Positions 12,082 through 12,894 of a stretch of 64,000 nucleotides of DNA are shown here, one piece after another. Each line of letters opens with the position of its first letter. Position 1 is the stretch's first letter. The stretch lies in sequence record PQ249395; one strand, 5' to 3'. Below the pieces are notes generated by a model. The model saw only the letters and a program-made list of their open reading frames with translations, was not told the DNA's origin and searched no databases. Origin of the DNA: Escherichia phage Pu-Krd-SF1. Both the position numbers and the translations under genes were made by a program.

Positions 12082-12894
12082 TTATTCGACCTTCTTAAAT
12101 TTGCAATTGTCAAAATGGTATCTTTTAGCGTGAGACTTATCCATGATTTTAGAGCAGTGCGGGCATTTTAATTTTTCTCTGCTATGAGATACACCCGTGA
12201 TAACTTTGCATTTATCGCCGTGGTATTTTCCATAATTTCCTACATCACATATAATTCCGCAATGCGGGCAATTTCTCTTTTCGACTTTTGCAAGACCCTT
12301 AGATAGTTTATTTAAATACTTTTCGTATTTTTGGGGGTCACTTTTAAGCTCAGACCAAAAATCTTTCATCTGTTTAGAACATCTTTCTTTATATTCTAAC
12401 ATTTCGTTTTCTGATAACGATTCCAAATATTTCACTGAAGCTTTTCGAATATTTGCATTAACTTCTTTTCTCTTTTCATCTGTCCATAAAGATTTAGTTT
12501 TTTTAATGCCTTTTCCGGCTTTTTTAATTCGTTCCTGTTTTAAATTTGGTGATAGATTCGCCCAAAACTTTTTAATGGTTTCTGATCTAATTTTAGATGT
12601 TTCCTCTTTAATCCATCCGTAATCTTTACTTACAATTCTCTGCTCTTTTGTACCCTTGGAGAATTTTATTAAGGCATAAGCCATTTCAGAATTTCGGTGT
12701 ATTTTAAAAAGAAGCTCATGTGCAAAATAGTGTTCTCTTGCTGTCAGTAAAACCTTGTTTTCTCTAGAATCATCTCCTCCCATGGATTTTGGGACAATAT
12801 GGTGTGATTCTGTATAATAATCTAATTTTTTCTTATTAAGACCTCTTTTAAGAGATCTTTCTATAAGAGAGTCGTAAATTTTAGTATAATTCAT
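12082..12894 (-). CDS. HNH homing endonuclease (Mob-like, NUMOD-type basic repeats) inserted between genes 13 and 14
   Basis: 270 aa; N-terminal [10 protein letters not shown]…N…H motif; C-terminal CPHCG/CPHCS zinc ribbon; ATGA overlap with gene 13 stop. Confidence 0.75.

Follow-up and report, generated by a model that had tools for sequence, protein, structure and literature searches.

It is textbook knowledge that T-even phages carry free-standing homing endonucleases. MobE, the characterised member of the T4 Mob family, makes a single-strand nick and does so at a distance, in nrdB. The stop codon of nrdA overlaps the start codon of mobE, and the resulting translational coupling has been suggested to limit synthesis of the endonuclease (PMC2988022). 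According to the tally of Petrov et al. 2010, phage T6 carries 11 homing endonuclease genes in total, three of which are mob-like (PMC2993671). I-TevIII is a dimer, with its interface in residues 194-241, and produces a double-strand break with 2-nt 3' extensions; its zinc fingers, which follow the motif CX2CX12-13HX3C, bind one zinc each and are needed for DNA binding (PMC1865063).

The locus compared here with these systems lies in a stretch of 64,000 nucleotides from Escherichia phage Pu-Krd-SF1 (record PQ249395), referred to below as the window. A homing endonuclease gene, abbreviated HEG throughout, fills the junction between the neck genes 13 and 14. The features of the locus are the following.

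12082..12894, minus strand: HEG, an ORF of 270 aa encoding a Mob-type HNH domain, a helical linker and two zinc fingers
12718..12810, minus strand: HNH catalytic core, residues 29-59, with E29, H31, H32, G40, N46, H55 and H59
12208..12270, minus strand: zinc finger 1, residues 209-229 (C209, C212, H225, C229; CX2CX12HX3C), which aligns with the first finger of I-TevIII
12103..12165, minus strand: zinc finger 2, residues 244-264 (C244, C247, H260, C264; CX2CX12HX3C), which aligns with the second finger of I-TevIII
12891..12911, minus strand: recoded 3' tail of gene 13, GTGGGAGTGTTAGTTGGATGA (PVGVLVG*), a candidate immunity/target polymorphism that also holds the ATGA start overlap
12891..13820, minus strand: gene 13 (neck, head-tail adaptor), the upstream flank, 309 aa, 98.4% identical to T4 gp13
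11310..12080, minus strand: gene 14 (neck, head closure), the downstream flank, 256 aa, Pfam T4_neck-protein E = 9e-138
13853-15310, minus strand: gene wac

The initial annotation of this DNA had proposed an intact, Mob-like HNH gene of 270 aa whose start overlaps the gene 13 stop and whose stop lies 1 nt from the gene 14 start, and the coordinates are exact. The HEG start codon (12894-12892) shares bases with the gene 13 TGA (12893-12891), forming the ATGA overlap, while its TAA ends at 12082 and is separated by one spacer base (12081) from the gene 14 ATG (12080-12078). That the gene is intact and of the HNH type is borne out by the ORF itself, by a Pfam HNH_4 match of 25.6 bits (curated cut-off 22), by a match to PHROG 655, ‘homing endonuclease’, with E = 1.8e-52, and by alignments to the Mob proteins, in which residues 1-111 align from Met1 with T4 MobB, MobD and MobE and so back the start codon. 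NCBIfam profiles gave no meaningful match to the product. Given 413 database homologues at E <= 1e-5, the ORF is far beyond what chance would produce. We consider HEG with high confidence to be a free-standing homing endonuclease gene of the Mob family.

A single base and no ORF separate the two neck genes in the T4 reference (NC_000866), where the last position of gene 13 is 94553 and the first of gene 14 is 94555, in agreement with the initial statement that T4 has no gene here. The alignment shows TAA-T-ATG upstream of gene 14 both at the HEG/14 junction and at the T4 13/14 junction. Since both alleles read TAA-T-ATG, the start context of gene 14 is unchanged by HEG.

In comparison with the T4 Mob family, the HEG product has an N-terminus of the same type (MNYxKIYxxLI...HHIxP...N...H), with identities over the N-terminal ~110 residues of 50% to MobB, 46% to MobD, 42% to MobE (i.e., 42-50% for these three) and 37% to MobC. 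The E values of these four matches range from 3e-14 to 8e-35, those of MobB, MobD and MobE lying at about 1e-23 to 1e-35, and the identity to RB3 MobE is 44%. Like the Mob genes, HEG is a free-standing gene of sporadic occurrence with conserved genes on both sides, and its start codon overlaps the upstream stop codon as in the nrdA/mobE pair (PMC2988022). It differs from the family in location, since it resides in the late structural neck operon whereas the Mob genes lie among early/middle nucleotide-metabolism genes, and in the C-terminal half of its product, which carries two CCHC zinc fingers and is unrelated to that of MobB, MobD and MobE.

This C-terminal half resembles I-TevIII instead. 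Residues 192-267 are colinear with residues 193-266 of RB3 I-TevIII, at 33% identity and E = 2e-7, and the C-terminus of the T4 I-TevIII remnant is 34% identical to the same residues. The two proteins are also close in length (270 aa for the HEG product and 269 aa for RB3 I-TevIII), and each has two C-terminal CX2CX12-13HX3C fingers in colinear positions. However, a pairwise comparison of the N-terminal halves gave no significant similarity, the HNH domains there being dissimilar, and I-TevIII is encoded in the nrdB group I intron whereas HEG is free-standing. Given that neither the N-terminal domain nor residence in nrdB is shared, the HEG product is no I-TevIII orthologue, and the two have only the DNA-binding module in common. 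Judged by these alignments, the product joins a Mob-type catalytic domain to a DNA-binding module of the I-TevIII type. Hence, the label “Mob-like” given initially is accurate for the N-terminal domain, yet the protein is not a plain Mob protein, its C-terminal domain being of the I-TevIII type; likewise, the “zinc-ribbon tail” consists more exactly of two tandem CCHC fingers of the type found in I-TevIII.

In an alignment of 59 homologues, the residues E29, H31, H32, G40, N46, H55 and H59 are invariant, as are all four ligands of finger 2. The AlphaFold model, which was built on this alignment, has a mean pLDDT of 92.8, with values of 94-98 in the HNH region. In it, strands 29-32 and 47-50 and helix 52-66 form a beta-beta-alpha unit, residues 90-203 fold into five long helices, and a small strand-strand-helix unit stands at each finger. 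As modelled, the product has the beta-hairpin and the His-bearing helix that characterise the HNH superfamily. A PDB sequence search returned only marginal HNH-motif matches (best E = 0.084), in which the HNH region aligns with the HNH motifs of a group II intron maturase and of Cas8-HNH. Foldseek of the model against the PDB gave nothing at E <= 0.001, with weak local HNH and zinc-finger matches at best reaching E = 0.19. With no significant sequence or fold match in the PDB, no solved homologue can be named.

The placement of the gene in the late neck operon, also part of the initial annotation, agrees with the sequence context, in which HEG lacks both a canonical promoter and a canonical terminator. 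An exact copy of the late-promoter box TATAAATA is absent from the HEG strand between 8135 and 20228, a range that includes 7 kb upstream; one-mismatch variants of TATAAATA do occur on this strand and were not counted as evidence. No terminator-like sites were found within HEG on its strand. A terminator-like GC-rich hairpin with a T-run is located at 13850-13833 on the minus strand, between wac and gene 13. No unusual RNA structure was found around the HEG start codon (z = +0.97). Given the lack of an own promoter or terminator, HEG is most likely read through within the late neck operon, with its translation coupled to that of gene 13.

Regarding its distribution, the 1.4 kb around HEG is 100% identical in Escherichia phages Pu-Krd-SF5, SF6 and SF7, and T6 carries the gene at the same 13/14 position. 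The records of these four phages label the ORF ‘homing endonuclease’, as do PQ759885 and those of dozens of relatives. Hence, HEG as a feature is already known, and the public records hold the correct label; literature searches on HEG, Pu-Krd-SF5 and T4_ev151 turned up no paper giving the gene a name or reporting a test of it. A DNA search found the full HEG region covered in 45 records, against ~500 Tequatrovirus records, and a protein search likewise gave 45 records with at least 95% identity, followed by a gap down to less than 60%. The T4-type empty 13/14 junction was found in 612 records in a database search. When a 48-nt probe of the carrier-type gene 13 tail was used, 46 records matched at 90% identity or more and 450 at 80-90%. 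HEG is therefore present in ~9% of Tequatrovirus genomes, every time between genes 13 and 14, and is missing from T4, RB14, AR1 and others. Sporadic presence and absence between conserved genes is a trait of the Mob family, and HEG displays it.

The boundaries of the element were examined in 20 genomes, hand-picked from ~500 because an IMG/VR search with gp14 gave only 15 loci. Nine are carriers (the window, T6, BCPShso_001, T4_ev151, YUEEL01, SHFML-26, 215Ecol030PP, pSe_SNUABM_01 and one IMG/VR contig) and 11 are non-carriers (T4, RB14, AR1, HP3, Shfl2, IME537, CE1, OES_C-1 and three IMG/VR contigs). In all carriers, gene 13 ends in GTGGGAGTG(T/C)TAGTTGGATGA (PVGVLVG*), whereas in all non-carriers it ends in TTTGGA(A/G)TTTT(G/T)GT(A/G)GGTTAA; the tail of HEG-free phages reads TTTGGAATTTTGGTAGGTTAA (PFGILVG*). 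The two tails differ at 8 of 21 nt (7 codons), including the substitutions F304V and I306V. Six of the eight differences are perfectly associated with HEG status in this sample and the other two near-perfectly (r2 of 0.82-1.0). Among the 246 polymorphic sites of genes 13 and 14, the association with HEG is limited to nt 910-929 of gene 13. Outside the gene 13 tail, the mean r2 is 0.04-0.10 and no site in either gene reaches 0.5, while polymorphisms just upstream of the tail and across gene 14 are common to both classes.

Since the tail alone is linked and the right side is unchanged, the transferable unit corresponds to 12082-12911, ~0.83 kb. The insertion had initially been called exactly intergenic. 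It does fill the 13/14 junction, but the recoded last 21 nt of gene 13 come along with it. The presumed target site is thus not the same in carriers and in empty genomes, and we infer that the changes in the gene 13 tail may confer immunity. In Moonvirus genomes (L009, L010, L015 and L021), the last bases of gene 13 are GGATGA, and the ATG of gene 14 overlaps this stop codon. The resemblance of this ending to the end of the carrier tail (…GTTGGATGAAT) hints at a possible origin of the left end of the cassette, which may have come from a Moonvirus-like donor.

Diversity differs strongly between HEG and its flanks. Among the nine carriers, nucleotide diversity is 1.0% for HEG, 4.65% for gene 13 and 3.5% for gene 14. 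Synonymous diversity (pS), calculated on the eight intact copies, i.e., leaving out SHFML-26, is 0.037 for HEG, 0.209 for gene 13 and 0.177 for gene 14; HEG therefore lies ~5-fold below the neck genes of the same genomes. The diversity of the carriers' flanks is as high as that of the non-carriers, and in the 20 genomes the nearest neighbours of a flank often belong to the opposite HEG class. In gene 14, for instance, the carrier YUEEL01 and the non-carrier HP3 differ by 0.26%. This low HEG diversity in diverse, interleaved flanks indicates that the HEG allele is much younger than the backgrounds it occupies. The history of HEG is incongruent with that of its flanks, as the functional definition of a homing endonuclease gene requires, and the pattern is that expected from a horizontally spreading element. 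A neutral insertion carried along by ordinary homologous recombination could also produce a young allele with sharp edges.

The ratio pN/pS is 0.13 for HEG and ~0.01 for the neck genes, the HEG value indicating purifying selection. Together with the intact HNH residues, this value argues for a presumably active enzyme. A full-length HEG is found in 8 of the 9 sampled copies. The copy of SHFML-26 (L031) has an A7-to-A6 frameshift, at alignment position 1317 of the 13-HEG-14 block, which cuts the product to 153 aa and gives two annotated ORFs. This may reflect genuine decay or a homopolymer sequencing error. The HEG annotation is similarly split in vB_EcoM_F1 and FN. With at least one frameshifted copy (SHFML-26), HEG appears to be dispensable and able to decay.

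The 13/14 junction has other occupants outside Tequatrovirus, listed below.

L027:187-990: HEG orthologue from a wastewater metagenome, Moonvirus-like, next to gene 14
L025:38-835: HEG orthologue, next to gene 14
L026:265-1065: HEG orthologue, next to gene 14
L019:2550-3185 (Mosigvirus SQ17): Seg-like endonuclease of 211 aa with a GIY-YIG-like N-terminus, at the 13/14 junction

The first three are the closest non-Tequatrovirus homologues of HEG, with 52-57% identity, and each lies on a metagenomic T4-like contig directly upstream of gene 14. L027 belongs to Moonvirus: its gp14 is 99% identical to that of Merlin-like phages, which are themselves without HEG. The last 13 nt of its gene 13 show 5 differences from four HEG-free Moonviruses, against a background divergence of 7-9%, and these changes amount to four synonymous codons plus the stop codon (TAA for TGA). 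Across genera, the nucleotide sequence at the end of gene 13 (…LYLLDPPFGIL…) is conserved. Between its genes 14 and 15, L025 also contains a second HNH ORF (1621-2217), whose 198 aa include just one CX2C...HX3C finger; this contig thus has two endonuclease genes in succession in the neck/tail-completion operon.

The Mosigvirus endonuclease is present in 13 records (SQ17, F2, mogra and others) with a mutual identity of at least 99.4%. Its Pfam matches, both below the cut-off, are to the I-TevI DNA-binding domain and NUMOD3, and BLASTP against the HEG product gave E = 7.8, i.e., the two are unrelated. The gene interrupts gene 14 behind codon 4 and uses the original start of gene 14, whose 5' end is recoded in the carriers (MSTYNSN, versus MATYDKN in RB69). 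The two systems therefore share the junction, to within ~35 bp, a sporadic occurrence and the recoding of an adjacent essential gene, but they differ in that the proteins are unrelated and in that the Mosigvirus gene recodes the 5' end of gene 14 whereas HEG recodes the 3' end of gene 13. Compared in this way, the 13/14 boundary looks like a recurrent landing site. A stronger reading, which we advance tentatively and consider open to considerable doubt, is that the boundary would be a convergent homing hotspot for two unrelated families, each protected by recoding, and that the HNH enzyme would be a dimeric double-strand cutter.

The window contains further endonuclease genes. A 273-aa ORF at 60616-61437 on the plus strand, flanked by gene 49 (60146-60619) and by an nrdD without intron (61428-63245), contains a NUMOD3 motif and is labelled ‘homing endonuclease’ in PQ759885. 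T4 has no ORF between gene 49 and nrdD and has the I-TevII intron inside nrdD instead. Two ORFs share the mobD locus, one of 75 aa (49901-50128, plus strand), which matches the N-terminus of T4 MobD including the HNH motif, and a C-terminal one of 147 aa (50237-50680, plus strand); judging from these fragments, this mobD is apparently decaying. Inside the tRNA cluster lies a GIY-YIG segB-like endonuclease gene (35431/35539-36204, plus strand), and beside this cluster an ORF (34257/34281-34889, plus strand) has a sub-threshold Pfam HNH match and is labelled ‘HNH endonuclease’ in PQ759885. At the mobC/segH locus, a further gene annotated as a homing endonuclease extends past the end of the window (~63.2-64.0 kb). 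The mapping of PQ759885 onto the window is exact near 12 kb and off by 12 nt near 60 kb; the inner starts 35539 and 34281 were carried over from this mapping, while for nrdD, the ORF between it and gene 49, and the two mobD fragments the positions given were read from the window itself.

In the mechanism we propose, late transcription of the neck operon would include HEG, which would be translated at a low level, coupled to gene 13 via the ATGA overlap. During a mixed infection, the zinc fingers would bind the conserved end of gene 13 and start of gene 14 of an HEG-free phage, and the bound protein would nick or cut nearby, at a target site placed solely from the linked polymorphisms. Recombinational repair off the carrier genome would then copy in the 0.83-kb cassette. 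The carrier would be immune both because the insertion splits the site and because its gene 13 tail is recoded. By analogy with the two related systems, a Mob-like single-strand nick and a dimeric double-strand cut are equally possible, the latter being plausible given that the C-terminus matches the DNA-binding and dimerisation part of I-TevIII. From the sequence comparisons, we consider it likely that HEG is active at present and that its homing site is the 13/14 junction, as proposed.

Among the alternatives, HEG might be a stranded relic that has lost its activity or its target and spreads passively by ordinary T-even recombination. There is precedent for this in T4, which has the defunct homing endonuclease genes mobA and I-TevIII (PMC2988022), and the frameshifted SHFML-26 copy, the mobD gene split into two ORFs in the window and the restriction of carriers to only ~9% of genomes fit the same picture. 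Yet a relic would sit poorly with eight full-length copies out of nine, with a pN/pS of 0.13 and with the retention of all the catalytic and zinc-binding residues that are invariant in the family, and the 5-fold lower synonymous diversity points to a recent spread over diverged backgrounds. We therefore regard this explanation as unlikely.

HEG might also have been domesticated as a beneficial nuclease that excludes the neck-gene region of competitors (marker exclusion) or has another role between host and phage. Purifying selection and the position next to essential structural genes are in line with this, partial exclusion of T2 by T4 mediated by homing endonuclease genes is documented (PMC2993671), and T6 SegB has a reported role in anti-defence amplification (PMC13096335). 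However, ~90% of close relatives on the same hosts live without HEG, the locus offers no pointer to a second function, and such a role would be compatible with homing as well; we regard domestication as quite improbable. A packaging-associated HNH protein that helps terminase, as in many cos-type phages, was rejected as extremely improbable: HNH genes beside terminase genes are common in other phages, as a passage in PMC3592412 indicates, and gene 16 begins ~1.6 kb downstream of HEG (terminase genes 16 and 17 being ~1-2 kb away), but genes 14 and 15 separate HEG from gene 16, its homologues are Mob proteins, with the Mob homing endonucleases and the DNA-binding domain of I-TevIII standing closest to it, and T4 and ~90% of Tequatroviruses package normally without it.

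As a gene, HEG has little discovery value and is ordinary for a T-even phage. What is added here are the boundaries of the element, the contrast in diversity and the observation on the hotspot. For annotation, HEG accounts for the extra ORF in the neck operon, and the gp13 changes F304V and I306V move with the element and are not a sign of neck-protein evolution. The locus offers a clean, testable system, being a small element of 0.83 kb with sharp boundaries for which both a carrier (T6) and a non-carrier (T4) are classical phages, and its 21-nt candidate immunity/target polymorphism sits in an essential neck gene. If the hotspot reading is true, an HNH family in Tequatrovirus, Moonvirus and two other lineages and a GIY-YIG-type family in Mosigvirus would have come to occupy the same boundary, their carriers protected by the recoding of an adjacent essential gene, which lies to one side of the junction in the first family and to the other side in the second. 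HEG would then also illustrate natural domain shuffling between intron-encoded and free-standing endonucleases, and its enzyme would make a double-strand break, unlike the nicking Mob enzymes.
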